Origin: an uncultured candidate division WWE3 bacterium
Lineage (GTDB): Bacteria > Patescibacteriota > WWE3 > UBA101185 > UBA10185
Length of the DNA: 64,000 bases
Direction: 5' to 3'
NCBI GenBank assembly: GCA_903879985.1
Contig: CAIRNR010000004.1
Location: 96,762-160,761, forward strand
Made by a program: the position numbers and the translations under genes. The notes beneath the pieces are model-generated. The model made no database searches and was not told the origin of the DNA. It saw only the letters and a program-made list of their open reading frames with translations. Of this stretch, positions 50 to 28,409 are shown one piece after another. Position 1 is the stretch's first letter. The number at the start of each line of letters is the position of its first letter.

Positions 50-808
50 TTAATTCTCAAAGTATTTTTTAGTTATGGCAATAACAATACCGTATCGATT
101 TTCATTTGTTATGTTTTTAAGCAACTCCGGTAGACTGGGGAGATTTTGTTTTTCATACGTGGTTCCGGCAATACCAGAGGTTTCTCTTTGAGCATATTCG
201 ATATCTCCAAAGTCAGTAGTAGATTTTTCTACGAATTCTATTTGTATTGTTTGGTCATTCTTTGAATATCTTGCGACTGAAGAAGGTAGATTGGAGACAT
301 CGTACACACCTGTGCCGTTTAAACGTTTTGTCCCGTAAGACTTATCGTATACGTCCGCAAGATATTGCATTGGTTGGTTGCCATCTCGATCTGTATACGT
401 AGCTGTCCAACCTAGCTTATTTATATCTTTTTCAAAATTAAGTATTGTTTGTTTAAAATCGCCGTTGAAACCATAATAACTAGTGATTTTATAAGCACAT
501 TGACTTGCATAACCATCAGTTCTTTTCCAATTGCTTTCTCCACGATGACAGCGATCGTAAAAAGATGTTGTATATTCTTTAAGATATCCTAGTTTATTTA
601 TTTCACTAAAACTGTTGTTTATATCAGTAACTGTAGTGTTACGAGCAATTACAACTTTGCTGTTATTAGGATCTACGTTTGGTTTCATATTTCTCCATAG
701 ACCGTCGGCACCTCCATTTATGGCGAGAATTATAAGAACAACAGCACAAAAAGCTGCTACTGTAAGTATGCCTCCTAAAATAATAAGTATGTTAATAAAT
801 TTGTTCAT
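50..808 (-). CDS. hypothetical membrane-anchored/secreted protein
   Basis: Long ORF with an N-terminal hydrophobic anchor (ILIILGGILTVAAFCAVVLIILAI). No catalytic motif recognised. Confidence 0.45.
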   Translation of the reverse strand: MNKFINILIILGGILTVAAFCAVVLIILAINGGADGLWRNMKPNVDPNNSKVVIARNTTVTDINNSFSEINKLGYLKEYTTSFYDRCHRGESNWKRTDGYASQCAYKITSYYGFNGDFKQTILNFEKDINKLGWTATYTDRDGNQPMQYLADVYDKSYGTKRLNGTGVYDVSNLPSSVARYSKNDQTIQIEFVEKSTTDFGDIEYAQRETSGIAGTTYEKQNLPSLPELLKNITNENRYGIVIAITKKYFEN

Positions 809-817
809 ATATAATCT

Positions 818-2146
818 TTAAAGGTGATAAACCTGTGACCAAGCGCCTACTTTGCAGTCGTTAATCGTTCTCATTTTCCAATATCCTCCAAACCAACCTG
901 CTGGTGTGCCTACTCCAACGTTTTCATGTCCATCGTTTGCCATAATTAAATGGAAAGGCAAAATTATCGGTGCATATCCAAACTGAATTTCAATTTTATT
1001 GCCGCCTACCGCAGACCATGTTATAGCCTGCGTGCTAGGATTAAAAGAAGACCATGTTGGCAGTGGGGGTTTTACCGCTAAGCAACGTGTATCCTTTTTA
1101 AATGTTTTATGGGCTGCGCTGCTAGATTGCGGAGTATTAGTATCGTGAAGAATATCGCCAATATCAATCTGACTTAAGTAACCATCACCAAAGCCATCAT
1201 CAGTAATACCTCCTATTACATATATCGAATAGTCGTCTATTACATTTGTTGCAAAAGCCTCGGCCACTGGAAGCTTATTGCTACTGGTTGTCCAAGAGAC
1301 ATCTCCATCGCTTATTGTTCCGATATACACCCGATCGTTACGATCAAGATCCGTCCAACCTCCCATAGCGTATATGGTGCTTCCTTTTATTACGGCTGTT
1401 TCGCAGGAGACACCGTCTGGAAGATCGTTGTTGCTTGTGGTCCAAGTGACATCTCCGTTGCTTACAGTGCCGATATATATTTTATTACTGTGGTGACTAC
1501 CCGTTTCTCCGCCTATTAAATAAATTGTGTTACTGTCTAGAACACTAGCTGGATAAGCTAACGGTACCGGGAGATCCTGCGCACTTGTGGTCCATGTGAT
1601 ATCTCCATTATTTATAGTACCTAAATATACCTTTGCACTGTTACCCACACTATCGTTGCCGCCTATAAGGTATATAGTATTACCGTCTATTATGCTGGTT
1701 GCATTCGCCAGTACTACGGGAAGATTATTACTGCTTGTTGTCCAGGTTACGTCGCCATTGCTTATCGTGCCTATATAAACTTTGTTGAGAAATCCGTCTT
1801 CATTTAATCCACCTAAAAGATAGATTTTATTACCGTCTATTACACTTGTTGGAAAAGCTAAAACTGAAGGAGTAGTATGCGCACTAGTAGTCCATGTTAC
1901 GTCACCGTTGTTTATGGTTCCAATATATACAGCATCCGTGTAACTATCACCTATATAACCACCCATAAGATAAATATTATTTCCATATTTAACGCTTGTT
2001 GAATTGGATATCGATATTGGAAGAGTATTGGTGCTGGTAAACCATTGCACATCAGGGCTTTCGGCAAAGCAAGTGTGTGTAGCAAAAGTTAGAACAGAAA
2101 ATATAATTAGTAATGCGGGTATTAGACTAGCAGGTTTTTTAAGCAT
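818..2146 (-). CDS. secreted Kelch-type beta-propeller repeat protein with conserved C-terminal domain
   Basis: Signal peptide (..TFATHTCFA/ESP). About six tandem ~48-aa repeats of IYL(I/L/M)GG...VY(I/L)GTIxNGD(V/I)TWTTS; the GG doublet, Tyr and Trp are Kelch hallmarks. C-terminus HKTFKKDTRCL..KP..TW is shared with ORFs 24073..25089 and 25701..28409. The antisense ORFs at 1278..1496 and 1587..1778 are repeat artefacts. Confidence 0.6.
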   Translation of the reverse strand: MLKKPASLIPALLIIFSVLTFATHTCFAESPDVQWFTSTNTLPISISNSTSVKYGNNIYLMGGYIGDSYTDAVYIGTINNGDVTWTTSAHTTPSVLAFPTSVIDGNKIYLLGGLNEDGFLNKVYIGTISNGDVTWTTSSNNLPVVLANATSIIDGNTIYLIGGNDSVGNSAKVYLGTINNGDITWTTSAQDLPVPLAYPASVLDSNTIYLIGGETGSHHSNKIYIGTVSNGDVTWTTSNNDLPDGVSCETAVIKGSTIYAMGGWTDLDRNDRVYIGTISDGDVSWTTSSNKLPVAEAFATNVIDDYSIYVIGGITDDGFGDGYLSQIDIGDILHDTNTPQSSSAAHKTFKKDTRCLAVKPPLPTWSSFNPSTQAITWSAVGGNKIEIQFGYAPIILPFHLIMANDGHENVGVGTPAGWFGGYWKMRTINDCKVGAWSQVYHL

Positions 2147-5158: not shown

Positions 5159-5866
5159 ATGATGCCTCAAATGTTTAAGGCTACCTTGAAGCAAAAAACG
5201 ACTTTATCTCCCAAAGCAACTGGACTGACCCTACAGTTAATTGAACCTACTAAAATTGAATTCAATCCCGGACAGTTTGTTAACTTAAAAGTTGCCGACG
5301 CTGTTTATAGGGCTTATTCAATTGCATCTCCGTGTGCACAACAAGATAAAATTTTCTTAATCGTTACAACAAGTCACGAAGGTGTCGGTTCTGAATATGT
5401 GCGAAATCTTCATATTGGCGACGAAGTTACGTTTATTGGGCCATCAGGAAAGTTGCATTTAAAAGAAAAACATTCTAAAGCTATTTATTTTTTCGCAACC
5501 GGTTCTGGTATAGCTCCATTTATTTCAATGCTTGAACAATTAGCATGTGATAATTATTCTGGAAAGATTCATTTGTTTTTTGGTGTTCGTCATCCAGAAG
5601 AAGTTTTATGTTTAGATGAATTAACAGGTTTAAAAAAACGTCTAAAGGATTTTACGATAGACTTTTATGTTTCTAATCCTCAAGATGATTTTATGGGTGT
5701 AAAAGGCAGGGTTACTGCGGCTATTCCAAATATTACCGATTTTAATGCGGACTTTTATTTATGTGGGCATCCTCAAATGGTCGAAGATGTTAACACTGCT
5801 TTAAAAGCTAAAGGTGTCCCCGACGAAAATATTATTTGCGAGGGTTTTACTAAGACCTTGAAGTAA
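5159..5866 (+). CDS. ferredoxin-NADP reductase-like FAD/NAD(P)-binding oxidoreductase
   Basis: FNR-family motifs: RAYSIAS (RxYS FAD-binding), GPSGKL, and ATGSGIAPF (NAD-binding GxGxxP). Confidence 0.6.
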
Positions 5867-8264
5867 ACTTCAACCTCAAGCTATTACTCACAACCGAAAC
5901 AGAACTTGCTGCCATAGCCATGCTTGCGATTATTGGTGACAACAATATGCCAAAGAATGGAAACAATATTCCGGCGGCTACTGGGATTCCGATGATGTTG
6001 TATCCAAATGCCCAGAAAAGATTTTGATTAATAATGCGTAGTGTTTTTCGTGAAAACTCCAGAGTATCTACAACTTTGTTTAAGTCACCGTTGATTATTA
6101 CAATATCGCCTGTTTCAATGGCTACGTCTGTTCCTGTTCCCATGGCGATACCGACATTGGCTTGAGCAAGCGCTGGTGCGTCGTTTATTCCGTCACCGAC
6201 CATTGCCACTACATAATTTTTATTTTCATATTGAAGTTGCTTAACTTTTTCAGCTTTCATTTGTGGTAGAACATCCGCAATAACTTTATCGATGCCAAGT
6301 TCTTTTGCAACGGCATTAACTGATATAGCATTATCCCCAGAAAGTATTCCGGTTAGTATTCCAAGCTTTTTAAGTTTGTTAATGGCTTCGCGTGAGCTTG
6401 GTTTTATTGTGTCCGAAATTCCAATAATTGCTGCTGCTTTATTTCCAACCGCAACTAACGAAACTGTTTGACCTTGTGCTCTAAGTTCGTCTGCTTTTTG
6501 GGATAGCTCTTGTGATACTTCTACATTTTTATTTTTTAATAAGCTGGCTGTGCCAATTAAAATATTATTGTTTTGAATGGTTGCTTGTACGCCTTGACCG
6601 GATATATCTTCAAACTTTTCTGGTTCTATACCGGTTGCCGACACATTTAAATAATTAACAACGGCTATAGCCAACGGGTGATGCGATTTCTTTTCAACAC
6701 TAAGCACAAAATTATTTACTTCAGCTTTTTCAAATCCATCAAAAACTTCAAACGTTTTTACTTGAGGTTTGCCAACGGTAAGTGTTCCTGTTTTATCAAA
6801 GAGAACAAAGTTTATTTTTCTGGCAGTTTCAAGAGCTTCGGCGTCTTTAATTAATATACCGTTTCGTGCAGCCAAACCTGTTCCAACCATAACTGCTGTT
6901 GGTGTTGCTAAGCCAAGTGCGCAAGGGCAAGCTATTATTAAAATAGTTGTAGCTATATAAACAGCTAACTGAATTGGACTTTGTCCTGCTAAGATTCCTA
7001 ATTGAGGTGCCACAAAAAACCAGAACAAAAAAGCAAGTGCTGAAATTCCAATCACAATAGGAACGAATACTGCAGAAACGCTGTCTGCGATTTTTTGGAT
7101 TGGTGCTTGTGTTGCCTGTGCGTCTTGAACCATTTTAACGATTTGGGCGAGTAAAGTTTTATCTCCAACTTTTGTGGCTTTAAACATAAACGTTCCAGAT
7201 GTGTTGATTGTTCCCCCAACCACGCTATCGCCAGCTTTTTTTTCGTTAGCAATCGGCTCACCTGTAACCATTGACTCATCTACAAAAGAATTTCCGCTCT
7301 CTACAATGCCGTCTACGGGGATTTTCTCGCCTGGTTTGATGATTATTACGTCCCCAACTAAAACTTGGGATATTGGTACAACAACCTCTGCGCTATTTCT
7401 AATTACTGTGGCATCTTTTGCTTGTAATTTTAGTAACGCTTTAATTGCGTCTCCGGTTTGTCCTTTTGAACGAGCCTCGAGTAATCGTCCAAGTAAGATA
7501 AAAAAAATGATAAAAACGCTGGCTTCAAAATATACTTGGGATTCTCCTGCTATACCTTTGAATAATGCCGGAAAAAATGTAACAACTGAGGAAAAAAGCC
7601 ATGCCGAAAAAGTTCCCAACGAAATAAGTGTATCCATATTTGAAGCGCCTACTTTTATAGCGGTTATTGCGGACTTAAAAATGTTTTTACCACCGATAAA
7701 TAACACGGGTGTTGCAAGTAAGAACTGAAGTATGTTTAGAATAGAAATTCTAAGTGGTATAACCGCGCATTCTTCAATACATGCGGGTTGAGGTAAGTTT
7801 ATGTAGCCAACTAAATCAGCTAACATCGGTAAACCAAGTTTCTCACCAAATGCCATCCAAAACATAATTAGTAAAAATGGAAAAAGTGCTATGCCTACAA
7901 AAGTTAATGTTTTTTTAAGGTTTTCGTATTCTTCCTTTTTCATCATTTCTGCGTGATTGTGCATATGTCCGTGACCGTCGTCGTGCATTTCCATATTTTT
8001 GTTATCTAAAAGTTTGTAATCCCCTACCCTTTCCACAGCTTTTTTTAAGTCTTCAAATGAAACTTTGTCTTTGTCATACTCAACCGCCATAGTTTCTCCG
8101 GCAAAGTTTACATATACTTTTGAAACTTCTGGAATTTTACAAACCGATCCTTCAATTAAAGCTTTACATGATGCGCAATGAGTTCCTATAACGGAAAATG
8201 TTTCTTTTACAATGCTCATTAATTTACCTCCACTGTAACAGGAGGAACCATTCCCATGATACAA
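5850..8264 (-). CDS. copA: copper-translocating P1B-type ATPase
   Basis: N-terminal HMA CxxC ([12 protein letters not shown]), His-rich stretch ([11 protein letters not shown]), TM CPC motif ([13 protein letters not shown]), phosphorylation motif DKTGTLT, hinge GDGINDAP. Confidence 0.9.
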
Positions 8265-9541
8265 GTAATCTTAAAGGTTCCTTTTTTCTGTGGAGTGAAT
8301 TCGAATACATTTAATCCTTGATGCAAAGTAACTGAACCATCAAATAGTCCTCGACCTACTACTGTTGTTCCACAGCCGGTCATTCCATTGTTAGTAAAGT
8401 TCCATGTTACTGGAACACCTTGCTTTAATTGTACATTGTTTGGTGTGTATTCAAATCCACTTGCTTCCATAGTTAGTATCTGATTTGTTTTTATTATTGT
8501 GCTTTCTACTTGTTTCGTTTTGCTCATACTAGACTTTAGGTTGCTCAGGCTGGTAAATCCTAAAACATTAAATTGAGAGTTAATGTTAATAATTGCAAAA
8601 AATATGACCAGTATTCCGGCGGTATAGCTGAATACTTTTGAAAATGTGTGGTTTGCATAAAGTTTAACACTTGAAAAACTAATAAGGGCTAACATTGGTA
8701 AGGTACCAAGCGCGAAGCTTAATAACATGAGTGAGCTTGTCTTAAAGTCTCCAGTTGATAGTGCCAAGGTTTGTACAAGAATGGTAAAGCCGCATGGTAC
8801 AAAAAAGGTTAATGCTCCAACCAAAAATGGAAAATATTTTCCAGAAAAGTTGTTTTCTTTTGTTAAAAACTTTGGAGCTTGAATCTTTATTTTCTGTGCC
8901 CAAGATATATCGAGCATTTGTATTCCAAGCAAAAGCATTATTACAGAAACTATTATTGTGAAAACTGCAGTTGATTCTGCCGATAACTTAAACACGCTAC
9001 CGACTGTTCCTAACATTCCGCCAAGTACGGCAAAAGAAGCAAGTCTTCCGGTGTTAAACATTATAAAAGGTACGGCTTTATTACTTGTTTTATTGTTTTC
9101 GGTCCAAGTTTTAGAAAGAGACAACAGTATGCCTCCGGTTAGCGCCGCGCACGATGAAAGTCCCGCTGCAATTCCAAAAAAGAAGAATGCTGGTAGTGAT
9201 GATGTAGAACTTATTTGAAATTTACTTAATATTCCTATTTTTTCGTTAAGTATAAAAATTGCTGAAATTCCGGCCACAATAAATAGTGCTTTTCTAAATT
9301 CCGCAAATTTATTTTGTTGATGTGGAGTTGATGAAAATGTATAACCAAGGTCTTTAAATTCTGAGTTTAATTTTTCTATTGTTGGGATGTCTTTGGTGTT
9401 CTCGGCGAGGATCTCCACTTGTTTGGTAGATAAATGAGCTTTAACTTGCGATATTCCTTCATGTTTTCCAAGATTTCTTTCTATAAGATTTTCACAAGCT
9501 TTACAATGCATGCCTTTAACGTACAAAGTTGTATTTTCCAT
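8219..9541 (-). CDS. heavy-metal-associated domain / DsbD_2-type transmembrane / cupredoxin-like fusion protein
   Basis: N-terminal HMA ([12 protein letters not shown]), polytopic membrane core, C-terminal ~90-aa cupredoxin-like domain ([21 protein letters not shown]..). Overlaps the copA start by 46 nt, consistent with an operon. Confidence 0.65.
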
Positions 9542-22938: not shown

Positions 22939-24042
22939 CTAGTTAATTTGATCAAAGACCAGAGATTTATCCAAGTTTTTAGGATCCCTAATAAACGCTA
23001 TGGCCTCAGTTGTGCTTAAAATAGGAATTAAATATTTTTCACGTTCATCTAGGGCAACTCGTGGACAAAGTGTTGAAACTAAAATATCAAAATCTGTGCT
23101 ATTAATCGAATCAGAGTTAAAGAAATCTACCAGCACTATATCTGTTATGTATCCGCCTTTTTCATATTCTTTTTGAAGCTTTAATAATGATTCCATGCGA
23201 GATTGCCCAAACTTATTGCTGATTATAAAACCAACCTTTTTAGCTTTTTTAAGCTGCTGTTTGAGCGCTGTTAGTTTTGTTCTGTGTAGCTTCAGAAGTT
23301 TTTTATACTCATAAATATTCGTATCTCCTGACACCGGATCAAAGCATATAACATCTTTATGGGTAGCTAAAGACACAGGTAAAGCGTGAAAACCTCCGCC
23401 TTCAAACATTACAAACACGTCTACTTTGTCCATAACTTTTGTGGCCGAAGATGGATTACATCCTAAAACTTGACCTGCAAATCCAACGCGATCAGTACCT
23501 TTACCAACGAAAACATTTATACCTGCTGCGGTTAAAGCTTTTTTAGCTATTGGAACATTTTTAATATATTGAACTGAGCTTATTAATCCAATGTTTTCAA
23601 TTTTATTTTTACTTAAGTAAGCCACAGCTTTTGTAATTTGATCGTCGATACCGATTTTCATGTATAAAGGTACATAAACAACTTTAAATTTCTTTGGGAG
23701 AATTCTATTACTAATAGCAACGTTTCCAAAGTGAATTATTTTATTAATGCCTAATGTCTCGAATTGATAGTACTTAATGTCGCAAGCACCAAAGCAAGTG
23801 TCACCGGATAATATTATCTTTGTATTAAGAGATTTTTCCAGGTATGCGATTAAATCGTGTGAAAACTTTTTTAATCCTTCAGGGATTTCTAAGCCTACTA
23901 ATGCATCTTTTACAGTACCAAGCTCGGTTTTAATTCTATCTATTTCTAGTTCGTATTTGTCTAGGAAATCCTCAAAACTCTCGTAGTCGGGATGTAAACG
24001 ATTAACAAAAGGCTTAGAAGTATGATGATAAGGCTCAATCAT
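22939..24042 (-). CDS. Dph2-like (diphthamide-synthase-family / 3-amino-3-carboxypropyl transferase-like) protein, tentative
   Basis: ILSGDTCFGACDIKYY resembles the GD(V/T)xYGACC signature of the Dph1/Dph2 non-canonical radical-SAM family. Three spaced Cys (C83/C87, C195, C233) over about 360 aa fit its three-domain layout. The attribution is from memory of the Pfam signature only. Confidence 0.3.
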   Translation of the reverse strand: MIEPYHHTSKPFVNRLHPDYESFEDFLDKYELEIDRIKTELGTVKDALVGLEIPEGLKKFSHDLIAYLEKSLNTKIILSGDTCFGACDIKYYQFETLGINKIIHFGNVAISNRILPKKFKVVYVPLYMKIGIDDQITKAVAYLSKNKIENIGLISSVQYIKNVPIAKKALTAAGINVFVGKGTDRVGFAGQVLGCNPSSATKVMDKVDVFVMFEGGGFHALPVSLATHKDVICFDPVSGDTNIYEYKKLLKLHRTKLTALKQQLKKAKKVGFIISNKFGQSRMESLLKLQKEYEKGGYITDIVLVDFFNSDSINSTDFDILVSTLCPRVALDEREKYLIPILSTTEAIAFIRDPKNLDKSLVFDQIN

Positions 24043-24072: not shown

Positions 24073-25089
24073 TTACTTAATGTTGTACCAACCGTCTGGA
24101 AACAACGAGTTTGAAACAGCCTCTCCGTATTCTCCTGTTTTACAATGGTTAATAGGTTGAAGCTTTATTTTTTGCCAACTTTGCACGCCTTGTAGAAATT
24201 CGCTTCCATCATTACTAACATTGGATATCTGCCATGGAAAGTTTCCTGTTCCGTCGTCTATTTTTATATTAACCTTATCAGCGCCATACTGTGTCCATGT
24301 AAGGAGCATTCCCGCTTTTCCTTCTTTTTGTGAGGATTGAAGTTTAATCCATGTTGGCGAATATGGCTTTTTCCAAAGGCAACGTGTATCTTTTTTAAAG
24401 GTTTTAACGTTTGCACTTGCACGTGATTCGGTCACTTCTCCCCAATATAAGCTTTGTGGATTGTTGAATTCTCCTTCTGAATTATTTAAGCCATTTAAAA
24501 TTGATGCGGTGTAGTTACCCGTGCCATCAGTTATGCCTACAGTTACTGGTTGAGAAAATTGATCGGGGTTATCGCCGTAGTTTAGTTGAAAATTTCCATT
24601 TGGATATAAAACTAATTCTGAGTTTACGCGTATAGAACTACCTAAAAAAGTATTTTCCCAACGTACAACAAATCTAGAAGAATTTGAATCAATATAAATG
24701 TCATCATTTGGGAAATCACCATTATATGTATCCATGTCAGCGTCGTTAACTAAGATTCTTTTAATTCCATCTGTATTATCCGTTATATCCATCTCATAGT
24801 TATCCATATTATCGTCATATCCTTCATCAGGTTGATCGCTAAAGGCAACGGATGAGTTTGATGTTACCCATATCTTATTGTAAGTTTTGCCATAAAAGGT
24901 AAATGGAAACGGAAGTGTGTATTCAAAAAATTCATCGTCTTCATGAAAATTTTGTGCTGTTCCCCCGGTAATAAATGATTGAGGTATTTGGTGTTCTACT
25001 GTGGTCTCATCGGCAGCATAGGCTAAAGGGCTAAGCGTGAAAACTGAAATTAGAGCTATGCTTAAAACGGCAGCAACTTTAATCTTCAT
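24073..25089 (-). CDS. secreted protein with the shared ~105-aa C-terminal domain
   Basis: Signal peptide at the internal Met (MKIKVAAVLSIALISVFTLSPLAYA/ADE). C-terminal KTFKKDTRCLWKKP..TW..LTWTQYGADKVNIKIDDGTGNFPW..NDG..VQSWQKIKLQPINHCKTG..GWYN is about 60% identical to the C-terminus of ORF 25701..28409. Confidence 0.55.
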   Translation of the reverse strand: MKIKVAAVLSIALISVFTLSPLAYAADETTVEHQIPQSFITGGTAQNFHEDDEFFEYTLPFPFTFYGKTYNKIWVTSNSSVAFSDQPDEGYDDNMDNYEMDITDNTDGIKRILVNDADMDTYNGDFPNDDIYIDSNSSRFVVRWENTFLGSSIRVNSELVLYPNGNFQLNYGDNPDQFSQPVTVGITDGTGNYTASILNGLNNSEGEFNNPQSLYWGEVTESRASANVKTFKKDTRCLWKKPYSPTWIKLQSSQKEGKAGMLLTWTQYGADKVNIKIDDGTGNFPWQISNVSNDGSEFLQGVQSWQKIKLQPINHCKTGEYGEAVSNSLFPDGWYNIK

Positions 25090-25139
25090 AGCATAATAAT
25101 GATAAAGTTTTGCTGAGAAGTCAACATGATAGATGATGC

Positions 25140-25145
25140 TATAAT
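25140..25145 (+). promoter_or_regulatory. -10 hexamer TATAAT; probable leaderless transcript for the peroxiredoxin gene
   Basis: TATAAT ends 6 nt before ATG 25152 with no SD in between. Confidence 0.3.
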
Positions 25146-25151
25146 TCAATT

Positions 25152-25718
25152 ATGACAAACCAAATAGGAAAACAAATAGCAAACGCAAATTTTGAGATTT
25201 ATTTCGAGGACAAATTCTCTAAAGTTAAGTTCACAGACTACATAGGAAAATGGTTAGTTCTTCTTTTTTATCCCGCTGATTTTACATTTGTATGCCCTAC
25301 TGAACTCAGTGAAGCGGCTTCCTTTTACGAACAGTTTAAAAACTTAAATGCTGAAATAATTAGCGTTTCCACCGACACTGTTTATAGTCATAAAGCCTGG
25401 CATGATTCATCTAAGGTTATAGCAACAATTTCCTATCCAATGGCAGCAGATAAAACCGGAGAACTTTGCAAAATGTTTGGTACCTATATCGAGGAAGAAG
25501 GTTTATCTTTACGCGGAACATTTATAATTGATCCGGACGGAAAATTAATTTCAAGTGATATTCACAGTAACGATATTGGCAGAAGCACCGAAGAAATATT
25601 ACGAAAATTACAAGCAGCAATTTATGTTAGAGAAAATCATGGTGAAGTTTGTCCTGCTTCATGGAAACCTGGTAAAGCTACACTAAAGCCAGGTGTGGAT
25701 TTAGTTGGAAAGATCTAA
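25152..25718 (+). CDS. 2-Cys peroxiredoxin (AhpC/TSA family)
   Basis: Peroxidatic Cys motif FTFVCPTE and a resolving Cys region (GEVCPASW). Confidence 0.85.
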   Translation: MTNQIGKQIANANFEIYFEDKFSKVKFTDYIGKWLVLLFYPADFTFVCPTELSEAASFYEQFKNLNAEIISVSTDTVYSHKAWHDSSKVIATISYPMAADKTGELCKMFGTYIEEEGLSLRGTFIIDPDGKLISSDIHSNDIGRSTEEILRKLQAAIYVRENHGEVCPASWKPGKATLKPGVDLVGKI

Positions 25719-28409
25719 GTTATACCAGCCGTTAGGATATAAATCCAAAGAAAATGGATTGCCATAGTCACCTGACTTACAATGATTGATTGGTTTTATC
25801 ATAATTTTCTGCCAGCTTTGTACATTTGGCAAAAAAATATGGCCGTCATTAGCTGTGTCTGAAATTTTCCATGGATAGTTTCCTGTGCCGTCGTCTATTT
25901 TTATATCCATTTTATCTGCACCAAATTGAACCCAAGTTAAATTCATTCCTTGTATCCCGTTATTAGTAGCCGATGTAGCAGATATCCATGTGGTTGCTTC
26001 AGGTTTTTTCCATAAACATCTAGTATCTTTCTTAAATGTTATTGAATTTTGAGACTGAATGTTTGAATCATCTGGAGCTATTTCAATTGTATAAATGATT
26101 CCGCGGTTAGTTTCGCCTCCTTGACTGGTCATACCATATAATTTGTTGTTATAAAATTTTACAGATCCGTAAGGAAAAGCGCCTTCCACAGTACTACGCA
26201 CAAAATCATGTAATAGTTTAAAGTTTGTTCCATCAGTTTTGATCGAATAGATTACTCCAGCAGAACTACTACCTCCAAATACCGTAGTCCCATATATTGT
26301 ATCGCCCTCAATATAGAGTGGTCCAAACCAAGGAGTATTTCCATTATTAAGATCAGATGAAAAATCATGCAAATCCTTAAAGTTATTTCCATCAGTATCT
26401 ACAGAATATAGCGAACCTCCGGCTAACGCACCATCGTTAGAAGTAGTGCCATAAAGAGTATTACCTACAATTGCTAAAGCAGCTTGGGGACCGGTACCAT
26501 AACTAATGTTATTAAAATCGTGCACTATTTCAAAATCAGTTCCATCAGGATTTATAGAATATACTACACCTAAGCCTAATTCTCCGCCTCTTGCCGCAAC
26601 CCCAAATAATTTTCCTTGATACTCAACCAAACCACCAACCGGGTTATATCCATCTGCAGCATTATTATTTGCAAATGAATAAACTACCTCAAAGTTCAAT
26701 CCATTGGGATCAAAACGATACAATGTACCAACATCGTTAGCACCGCCAGAATAAGTAGTTCCATATAATTTATTGCTATAAAAAATTATGCTACCAAAAG
26801 GTTGTGCGCCATCTCCGACAAACGCACTAAATGAATGCAGAACTGCAAAGTTATTTCCGTCAATATCAACAGAAAAAATCGTACCATAAGGATTCACGCC
26901 ATCCATGTTATTTACACCATATATTTTCCCATTGTAAATTAGTGGATTTCCTTGTGGCATATCACCTTCACTAGCATCTATCATACTGTGAATCGCGCTT
27001 ACATGATTATTTGAAGGATCAAATGAAAATATTGCTCCCACATAATTAGTGCCGCCATATTCTGAAAAACCATATAAAATTCCACCTGATTCAGTAAGGG
27101 TACTTGTAGGATTAAAGCCATACTGAGACTCATCAGTAGCAAATGAATGAACCACGTTGTAGGTATAAGGGTAAGTTGTTACATTCACAGTATTTCCCGC
27201 TGAAACATCTTGATCTGTTAAAACATCGACTTGAACTCTATAGTTAACGCCGTTTATAAATGTTTCGACTACATGACAAGAAAATGTATAAGGATCAGAC
27301 CCTTCAAAAGTACATGAACCCATATTTGGTAAAACGTAATAAGAACTTGTATCCAAGTTATAAACAGAATATTTTACAGAGGTTACGTTACCTGCATTGT
27401 TATATCCGCTAATTGTTCCAACAATAGTGGGGTGTGTTTCTTGTGAAAGATCTGAATTGTGAACATTACTAACATCTATGTATGGTTGACCGGAATTTGT
27501 TCCATAATATCTTGCTACAAAATCAAGTTGATTGCCTTTTAATTCAGCTTTTGGAATTTTTACCTCGCAGGTTTGGTGTTTATAGCTAACTTTACTAGTA
27601 ATTCCAAAGGCGCATTTTCCATACGTATCAGTGTAGTCATCAATTCTATATTCTTTTTGTAATTCTGCTGTAGCCGGGTTTTGTGCAATAACTTTTAGCC
27701 AGTCAGAACCGTATTCGTTTGTATTATCACCTGTAATATCAAAGGCCATGTAAACATAATCAGAATCGTCTTTCATGTAAATATAAGTTTTAGCCGATGG
27801 ATGCCCTGTGGTTGAATAAAACATTGGTGAATAGTCGGCATCAACTTTTCCGTCAACCTCCGTAAGTAGTCCATCAACATTTAGCGATCCGTTATTTTTA
27901 AATGTGTACGATTGATAAGGTGTTCCCCAATCAGGAAATCTAAACGCATTTATTTCATACGATTCATATTGGTTTGCCTTTAGTGTTAAAACTGATTTAC
28001 CTTTACAAACACTCGGGATATTCCAAAGTAGTTCCACCGGCATATCATGATTAATAATAACGTTTTGGTCATCGGCACTGATATCGGCTAAAACGCTTTC
28101 GCCTGATTGTACATATTTTGCATACTCAGGTGTGATTGTTTTACCGCAAGCATCCAATTTTATTAAATCTATATCAGCGTAAGTTGTGTTCTCTTGGACA
28201 ATTTGAATTTTAACTTGTCCGTTTTTTGGTGTTACAACAAAGGTTTTTGTTTGATACGTGATTGTAAAAGGCTCCTTATAAATATCTGTCCATTTGCCGT
28301 CGGTTTCTTGTGAAATATTAAAAGTACCTTGTGCTGCTTTGACAGCGGGAAAAGAAAACAAAGCCATGATAAAAACTAATGCCAATGAAGCTCTCAGATA
28401 TTTAAGCAT
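25701..28409 (-). CDS. large secreted beta-propeller repeat (GloVer/TIGR03803-like) protein with the shared C-terminal domain
   Basis: Signal peptide (..FPAVKA/AQG). Seven ~45-aa repeats of xLYG(T/V)Txx(G)Gxxx(G)x(I/V)(Y/F)S(I/V)xxDGxNFxxLH(D/S)F. C-terminal ITFKKDTRCLWKKP..W..KIDDGTGNYPW..INHCKSG..GWYN domain. Confidence 0.6.
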   Translation of the reverse strand: MLKYLRASLALVFIMALFSFPAVKAAQGTFNISQETDGKWTDIYKEPFTITYQTKTFVVTPKNGQVKIQIVQENTTYADIDLIKLDACGKTITPEYAKYVQSGESVLADISADDQNVIINHDMPVELLWNIPSVCKGKSVLTLKANQYESYEINAFRFPDWGTPYQSYTFKNNGSLNVDGLLTEVDGKVDADYSPMFYSTTGHPSAKTYIYMKDDSDYVYMAFDITGDNTNEYGSDWLKVIAQNPATAELQKEYRIDDYTDTYGKCAFGITSKVSYKHQTCEVKIPKAELKGNQLDFVARYYGTNSGQPYIDVSNVHNSDLSQETHPTIVGTISGYNNAGNVTSVKYSVYNLDTSSYYVLPNMGSCTFEGSDPYTFSCHVVETFINGVNYRVQVDVLTDQDVSAGNTVNVTTYPYTYNVVHSFATDESQYGFNPTSTLTESGGILYGFSEYGGTNYVGAIFSFDPSNNHVSAIHSMIDASEGDMPQGNPLIYNGKIYGVNNMDGVNPYGTIFSVDIDGNNFAVLHSFSAFVGDGAQPFGSIIFYSNKLYGTTYSGGANDVGTLYRFDPNGLNFEVVYSFANNNAADGYNPVGGLVEYQGKLFGVAARGGELGLGVVYSINPDGTDFEIVHDFNNISYGTGPQAALAIVGNTLYGTTSNDGALAGGSLYSVDTDGNNFKDLHDFSSDLNNGNTPWFGPLYIEGDTIYGTTVFGGSSSAGVIYSIKTDGTNFKLLHDFVRSTVEGAFPYGSVKFYNNKLYGMTSQGGETNRGIIYTIEIAPDDSNIQSQNSITFKKDTRCLWKKPEATTWISATSATNNGIQGMNLTWVQFGADKMDIKIDDGTGNYPWKISDTANDGHIFLPNVQSWQKIMIKPINHCKSGDYGNPFSLDLYPNGWYNLDLSN

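Follow-up and report, generated by a model that had tools for sequence, protein, structure and literature searches.

A position-restricted FN3-like domain that may hold varied secreted proteins at the cell surface of Patescibacteria

How do bacteria of the Patescibacteria mount proteins on their surface? Much of bacterial diversity belongs to the Patescibacteria (candidate phyla radiation, CPR), which live attached to the cells of hosts, and the mounting of their surface proteins is little understood. The question is raised by a 64,000-nucleotide stretch of DNA from an uncultured, ultra-small candidate division WWE3 bacterium (assembly GCA_903879985.1, contig CAIRNR010000004.1, positions 96,762 to 160,761; this whole stretch is here called the window), in which three genes for secreted proteins end in the same small C-terminal domain. 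An earlier note on this DNA had proposed that the domain is a novel, lineage-specific surface-anchoring or sorting module. Altogether, our analysis leads us to favour, tentatively, a model whereby the domain is a Patescibacteria-specific piece with a fold like that of fibronectin type III (FN3), which would serve as a cell-proximal pedestal or docking piece that keeps cargo of many kinds at the surface of CPR cells.

The three open reading frames (ORFs) that carry the domain all lie on the minus strand, at the coordinates given in the earlier note, and the domain forms the low-coordinate end of each. The longest (25701..28409) encodes a 902-aa secreted protein composed of a predicted signal peptide read from the sequence (MLKYLRASLALVFIMALFSFPAVKA, 28335..28409), a region of ~390 aa without assignment, seven GloVer repeats, and the C-terminal FN3-like domain (residues 790-902, 25704..26042; Cys codons 26016-26018 and 25779-25781). 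The GloVer region (approximately residues 417-777, 26079..27161, as delimited by eye from the pattern of repeats) reaches 203.8 bits in seven stretches with the NCBIfam model TIGR03803, whose cut-off is 44, and probably forms a beta-propeller ectodomain. The gene at 24073..25089 encodes a 338-aa secreted protein in which a signal peptide is followed by an acidic domain of ~200 aa, for which neither Pfam nor NCBIfam gives a match, and by the FN3-like domain (residues 229-338, 24076..24405; Cys codons 24379-24381 and 24142-24144). Its ATG start at 25089 agrees with a 96%-identical homolog, P0003; a longer reading from a TTG start reaches 25149. The third gene (818..2146) encodes a 442-aa secreted Kelch-repeat protein (Pfam PF24681, E 2.3e-23; Kelch_1, E 3e-16, 5 stretches) that ends in a diverged copy of the domain belonging to subfamily B (residues 347-442, 821..1108; Cys codons 1082-1084 and 854-856). 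Judged by eye, the signal peptides of all three proteins have a basic N-terminus, a hydrophobic core, and an AxA-like site. Each gene ends in a TAA stop codon, with the neighbouring gene 9-30 bp away or overlapping. Because a protein identical to the 902-aa protein (database protein P0004) recurs, in an unchanged gene order, on nine or more contigs that come from several metagenome samples, we regard its gene as a real gene of a recurrent organism.

The proposed homology between the three C-termini survives alignment statistics. An ungapped BLASTP alignment of 108 aa shows 64% identity between the copies of the 338-aa and 902-aa proteins (E 7e-55), close to the ~60% first estimated, and the copy of the Kelch protein, rightly described as more diverged, is 32% identical to that of the 902-aa protein (E 2e-11). 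The Kelch protein's copy is also recognized by a hidden Markov model (HMM) of the family (E 6.6e-38) and shares 56% identity with its counterpart in P0066, likewise a Kelch protein. When each domain was searched against the whole window by tblastn, only these three copies were found, the next matches having E >= 0.35. The motifs (K/I)TFKKDTRCL and IN(H/D)CK are present in the window copies, and the two Cys do sit at fixed positions, the second being invariant and the first at least 90% conserved in a 69-sequence family alignment. The parts upstream of the domain, i.e. Kelch repeats (Pfam E 2e-23), seven GloVer repeats (203.8 bits), and a 200-aa region without a family match, are unrelated to one another, as had been claimed.

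The domain, which the earlier note called novel, is FN3-like and not new in its fold. AlphaFold2 modelled the isolated domain with seven strands at a mean predicted local distance difference test score (pLDDT) of 82.6, as in a seven-stranded FN3-type beta-sandwich; in the model of the full-length 338-aa protein, the domain reached a pLDDT of 85-96, and the N-terminal domain, at < 50, was unusable. The best Foldseek match is BhCBM56 (E 0.017). At the sequence level the fn3 signals are weak: Pfam fn3 matches two of 69 family members (best E 3.4e-4), and the Pfam comparison of the 338-aa and 902-aa proteins yielded neither PF00041 nor any other family at E <= 1. The hhalign comparison of alignment A2 with a 13-sequence FN3 alignment gave a probability of 38.8% and an E of 3.2e-4, with 66 columns over strands B-G in register, and bacterial fn3 arrays are weakly picked up by the family profile. 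On this marginal but consistent sequence evidence and the structure model, we take the shared region of ~100-110 residues to be a divergent domain of the FN3 type and no new fold.

Two Cys, present as exactly two in 87 of 98 domains, mark this variant of the fold. The first lies in a conserved segment, [TV]-F-x-x-D-x-R-C-x4-P-x4-W, that precedes strand A, and the second, invariant one lies within N-x-C-x-x-G in the F-G turn, at the end of strand F. Because the FN3 strand order brings the N-terminal segment and the F-G loop together at one pole, a disulfide staple is the natural reading of this arrangement, and the conservation of both residues makes a bond between the Cys of F-x-x-D-x-R-C and that of N-x-C-x-x-G plausible. 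The other residues that are invariant throughout the family are two Trp, a Pro, and the Asn and Gly around the second Cys, together with an Asn-Asp-Gly turn that is near-invariant.

How widespread is the domain, and on what kinds of protein does it occur? A word-indexed protein search with the domain gave just two relatives, and the family was found only by an exhaustive search with a five-sequence HMM profile against 1.84 billion representative proteins, which returned 129 matches at E <= 1e-3 and 95 at E <= 1e-10. About 100 of these representatives are true single-domain family members. Matches in several stretches of very large proteins turned out to be other Ig-like or FN3 arrays (fn3, Big_7, Kre9_KNH, DUF11, SprB) and were set aside, as were the 'Cake' designed propellers that the profile picked up among PDB sequences via a short repeated stretch, with no single stretch significant, and that we judged spurious. 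The eight genome loci that encode relatives all belong to Patescibacteria (candidate division WWE3, Saccharibacteria, Nomurabacteria, and 'Patescibacteria group'), as does every named source of the domain, and a scan of viral contigs for the domain gave no relatives. The window itself has a G+C content of ~36% and bacterial housekeeping genes, including those for LeuRS, RelA/SpoT, TGT, an EPSP-synthase-family (MurA/AroA-type) enzyme, and an ABC-F ATPase. By conserved sequences at the extreme C-terminus (..GWYN-x; ..GSW or ..YHL; ..WLIDP; ..AFN), the family divides into four subfamilies, and the window contributes two copies to the first and one to the second.

The named sources support the earlier note in taking the domain to be lineage-specific. 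It is also unannotated: the domain of the window proteins has no match in Pfam-A or NCBIfam even at E <= 1 (releases Pfam 2025 and NCBIfam June 2026), and NCBI names the members of its clusters 'hypothetical protein [Patescibacteria group bacterium]'. The claim that it is unlike the C-terminal domains (CTDs) of the type IX secretion system (T9SS), SLH domains, and LPXTG regions likewise holds for the window copies, which match none of these; models for SLH, LysM, CW_binding, GW or similar wall-binding Pfam families do not match the C-terminal region. Full-text literature searches found no published description of the domain. A preprint on the Pam pilus of CPR bacteria (10.64898/2026.03.03.709456) was considered as a prior description and rejected, since the Ig-like pilins it reports differ from this domain. 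Compared with FN3 (PF00041), its closest relative by structure, the domain has an extra N-terminal F-x-x-D-x-R-C segment and the conserved Cys pair, and the Pfam model, which weakly matches the two members mentioned above, misses the window proteins. We therefore describe it, from sequence comparison and modelling, as what appears to be a lineage-specific, Cys-stapled, position-restricted FN3 family that the curated families do not cover.

The position of the domain is strict. In all ~100 members it is present once and is the final globular unit, and ~85 of the proteins stop 0-8 residues beyond it. An N-terminal hydrophobic segment was found in 76 of 87 full-length members, the remainder looking like truncated gene calls. 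At least ten unrelated kinds of ectodomain precede the domain: family searches identified GLUG (by a faint Pfam Glug match), S8 subtilases, PD40/TolB-like propellers, Kelch, GloVer, and TSP1-like Cys-rich modules, and FG-GAP, NHL-like repeats, right-handed beta-helices, and Ig-like arrays were assigned by eye. The domain of the 902-aa protein is 54-67% identical to those of WWE3 and Nomurabacteria proteins whose N-terminal 500-700 residues have no detectable similarity to its own; judged from the sequences, the pattern is one of modular shuffling under strong constraint. The domain also differs from its cargo in charge, with a median isoelectric point (pI) of 6.5 against 4.15 for the ectodomains; in two window proteins it has a pI of 9.3 against 4.05 for the remainder (338-aa protein, 9.25 against 4.05). 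Found at the C-terminus of signal-peptide proteins whose ectodomains are many and unrelated, the domain is distributed as is expected of a surface-display module, which bears out the earlier note in this respect. The NCBIfam label for GloVer proteins, 'choice-of-anchor', applies to the 902-aa protein and agrees with such a module.

As a separate observation on the cargo, some small members of subfamilies C and D (P0069 and P0090, and, by eye, P0064, P0079, P0086, and P0099) consist of the domain plus Cys-rich modules of the form W-x-x-W-S-x-C-S-x-x-C-G-G-G. P0090 exceeds the Pfam TSP_1 cut-off (23.5 versus 21.6 bits), so that thrombospondin type-1-like repeats occur in surface proteins presumably of Patescibacteria.

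Is the domain itself the anchor? About 14 representatives (about 15% of homologs) extend 39-89 residues past it, and in these and in 10 fetched loci the order is the same: the domain, a linker rich in Ser, Thr, Glu, and Pro, the motif [VL]P[DEAN]TG, a hydrophobic helix, and a basic tail. The motif ahead of the transmembrane (TM) helix is typically VP[DE]TG, and the basic tail is usually ..[KR]-x-x-A-[LI]-[KR]-[DG]-F-E-[KR]-[KR].., e.g. ALKDFEKK. Such tails are found at loci L007 (9002..10576), L008 (3660..6299), L014-L016, L019, and L020, and on proteins P0005-P0010, P0013, P0019, P0025, P0047, P0075, and P0121. The cytoplasmic motif is kept even where the domains of different subfamilies share only ~30% identity (P0075 and P0121 versus P0005), and in ~400 kb of related loci, tails of the VP[DE]TG-TM-ALKDFEKK type occur only on proteins that bear the domain. 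The order of elements is shared with the LPXTG cell-wall sorting signal; the A-[LI]-[KR]-[DG]-F-E-[KR]-[KR] motif, by contrast, is atypical of it, and the tails match no NCBIfam LPXTG model at E <= 0.1. A word-indexed search with the VPETG-TM-FEKK tail gave no relatives, in an index that requires shared 5-mers. One tail-bearing gene adjoins two FemAB genes; FemAB enzymes make peptidoglycan cross-bridges, the attachment sites for sortase substrates. By its sequence, the tail resembles a sortase-type signal or a membrane anchor with an atypical cytoplasmic motif, and it may mark a dedicated route of anchoring used by some Patescibacteria. Because a separate tail anchor follows the domain in ~15% of homologs, where anchoring falls to the tail and the domain is just the folded unit ahead of it, the domain is not the sole anchor, and the suggestion that it is a self-sufficient anchor or sorting signal is probably not correct.

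In our model, the carrier proteins would be exported by the Sec system through their cleavable signal peptides, with the variable ectodomain (Kelch, GloVer, GLUG beta-helix, subtilase, FG-GAP, NHL, PD40, or others) leading and a single copy of the domain following as the final folded piece. The domain would, in some lineages, be tethered to the cell by the Ser/Thr-rich linker, VP[DE]TG motif, TM helix, and basic ..ALKDFEKK tail. The window proteins, which stop 0-3 residues after the domain and lack an LPXTG-like tail, would instead be kept at the envelope non-covalently by the domain itself, via an envelope component or an anchored paralog. The model builds on the homology of the copies, their FN3 fold, the strict single-copy C-terminal position, the modular shuffling, the restriction to CPR bacteria, and the tail that some homologs have. 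Because the domain is single and last, is conserved across CPR classes, combines with diverse cargo, and is placed right before the anchor where there is one, it is better read as a cell-proximal base than as an ordinary spacer; because it is much less acidic than its cargo (median pI 6.5 versus 4.15), it would be suited to face an anionic envelope. By its logic, the domain comes closest to T9SS CTDs, to the wall-proximal regions of LPXTG proteins, and to the dockerins, in which one conserved C-terminal module on many secreted catalytic or binding proteins can dock onto an anchored partner. Dockerins, however, are an unrelated EF-hand-like Ca-binding duplication, unlike the FN3 sandwich described here, for which a cohesin-like partner was not identified.

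Several observations weigh against a docking role. A regular-expression scan of all window ORFs found neither an LPXTG-like tail nor a tail-bearing paralog, and the sortase motif TLxTC occurs nowhere in the 64-kb window. The earlier note had suggested a search for further family members and for a gene that co-occurs with them: the members were found, and a comparison of gene neighbourhoods at more than 20 loci brought to light no conserved neighbour, partner, or sortase gene, only lineage-specific synteny. (The locus scan used alignment A1, the 69-sequence alignment being too diverse, and its loci are of subfamily A only.) The Cys-bearing N-terminal segment, on which the putative staple depends, is modelled poorly (pLDDT ~53-74). 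As far as the sequences go, a place in the structural core or in turns could account for every invariant residue, so that no ligand site is evident. Finally, given the separate anchor in ~15% of members, the domain may have no anchoring activity of its own, the tail-less proteins simply being released.

The last of these points is part of the main rival explanation, in which the domain is a passive structural FN3 spacer or a C-terminal cap, e.g. against proteolysis, and the tail-less proteins of the window are free exoproteins. We consider this a serious but still rather unlikely explanation. FN3 domains are common spacers in bacterial extracellular enzymes, and a generic FN3 fold, invariant residues that can be assigned to core and turn, the absence of a partner gene from the loci compared, and window copies without an anchor signal would all fit it. 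Spacer FN3 domains, however, are typically internal, tandem, and fast-diverging, whereas this domain is never tandem or internal and is always the last folded one in the chain. A passive cap also does not sit well with 54-67% identity across CPR classes despite an unrelated remainder of the protein, with the consistently lower acidity of the domain relative to its cargo, or with the fact that each subfamily keeps its own extreme C-terminus (..GWYN-x, ..GSW, ..WLIDP, ..AFN).

A more far-reaching variant of the docking model, in which the domain would act as recognition module in a so far undescribed, Patescibacteria-specific surface-display pathway that hands all cargo to one envelope receptor or processing enzyme, seems to us unlikely, if somewhat less so than the two explanations that follow. 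In its full form, the module would then act together with the VP[DE]TG-TM-ALKDFEKK tail, and the tail-less proteins of the window would be attached via the domain alone.

The domain could alternatively be an adhesion or ligand-binding module that binds a host or environmental ligand, e.g. a polysaccharide, and thereby targets the N-terminal domains to the host of the episymbiont. FN3-like and Ig-like C-terminal modules are often carbohydrate-binding or adhesive, and BhCBM56 is the top Foldseek match here. The conserved pole (N-terminal segment, C'-E loop, and F-G loop), as placed by strand order, would correspond to the usual binding face of FN3. Cultivated CPR bacteria are described as episymbionts, which have to attach to hosts (PMC11623550). 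The geometry, however, is wrong: in tail-bearing homologs, the domain borders on the membrane or wall of the producing cell itself, and the cargo points outward. Moreover, the domain has no sequence match to any carbohydrate-binding module or adhesin family, and the viral contigs scanned are without it. Thus, we regard a ligand-binding role as quite improbable.

Least probable among the functional explanations, in our view, is a dedicated sorting domain that, like a T9SS CTD, is recognized by CPR-specific export or attachment machinery and perhaps cleaved or covalently processed. The resemblance lies in the distribution: both are small beta-sandwiches of ~100 aa at the C-terminus, one per protein, on many paralogs and on unrelated proteases, propellers, and adhesins. 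The F-x-x-D-x-R-C motif, in a low-confidence segment at the junction of cargo and domain, could be a recognition or processing site, and the confinement of the VP[DE]TG-TM-ALKDFEKK tail to domain-bearing proteins in the ~400 kb of related loci would fit as well. Neither the window proteins nor the family members, however, match Por_Secre_tail (PF18962/TIGR04183) or the NCBIfam sorting-domain models, no T9SS family was found among the 30 window ORFs scanned against Pfam, and no candidate machinery gene is linked to the domain. The rule that a T9SS CTD occupies the extreme C-terminus holds for the window copies and ~85 homologs and fails in the ~14 extended homologs (~15% of members), which have 40-90 residues after the domain; to our knowledge, a T9SS-type signal does not tolerate residues after it. 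For a bacterium believed to have no outer membrane, Sec signal peptides already suffice to explain export, and we know of neither an outer membrane nor a T9SS in Patescibacteria. The idea that a tail on the window proteins is hidden by read-through or an alternative genetic code is rejected, given the TAA stops, the abutting genes, and the long ORFs that are intact under table 11.

The surroundings of the three genes yielded further observations. The two adjacent domain-bearing genes have a gene for a 1-Cys/AhpC-type peroxiredoxin (25152..25718, plus strand) between them; it runs convergently to the gene of the 902-aa protein, overlaps its 3' end by 18 bp, and keeps this arrangement on other contigs of the same organism. 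Directly downstream of the gene for the 338-aa protein, and adjoining a class I/II aminotransferase gene, this CPR genome encodes a Dph2-type 'diphthamide synthesis' radical-SAM family protein (22939..24042, minus strand; PF01866, E 4e-55). The synthesis of diphthamide is normally a trait of archaea or eukaryotes. At 50..808 (minus strand), the window encodes a 252-aa protein that has an N-terminal TM anchor and matches no Pfam family; its gene starts 9 bp past the stop of the Kelch-domain gene and may be co-transcribed with it. A copper/heavy-metal cluster occupies 5850..9541 (minus strand), where the gene for a P-type ATPase with an HMA domain adjoins that for an HMA-DsbD_2-cupredoxin fusion, and this DsbD-like membrane reductase is the sole thiol-redox membrane protein seen in the window. 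Within the N-terminal region of the 338-aa protein, VTVGITDGTGNYTASILNG (24466..24546, minus strand) is reminiscent of IKIDDGTGNFPWQISN in the domain (DGTGNY); the tblastn match is not significant (E 0.35), and the likeness may be due to chance or represent a remnant.

What would the domain mean for the biology of the CPR? If it is merely a structural cap, its value is limited to a better annotation of CPR 'hypothetical proteins'. If, as we tentatively suggest, it is a cell-proximal pedestal, one conserved module on ~100 unrelated secreted proteins provides a sequence handle on the CPR surface proteome, and the proteins that it marks include proteases, beta-helix, beta-propeller, and TSP1-like proteins. 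The module could be used as a concrete experimental reagent, and it points to an atypical sortase-like tail and possibly a dedicated anchoring route. Finally, were the domain the recognition module of a surface-display pathway, this would explain how episymbionts that bear a wall and lack an outer membrane mount diverse adhesins and hydrolases.

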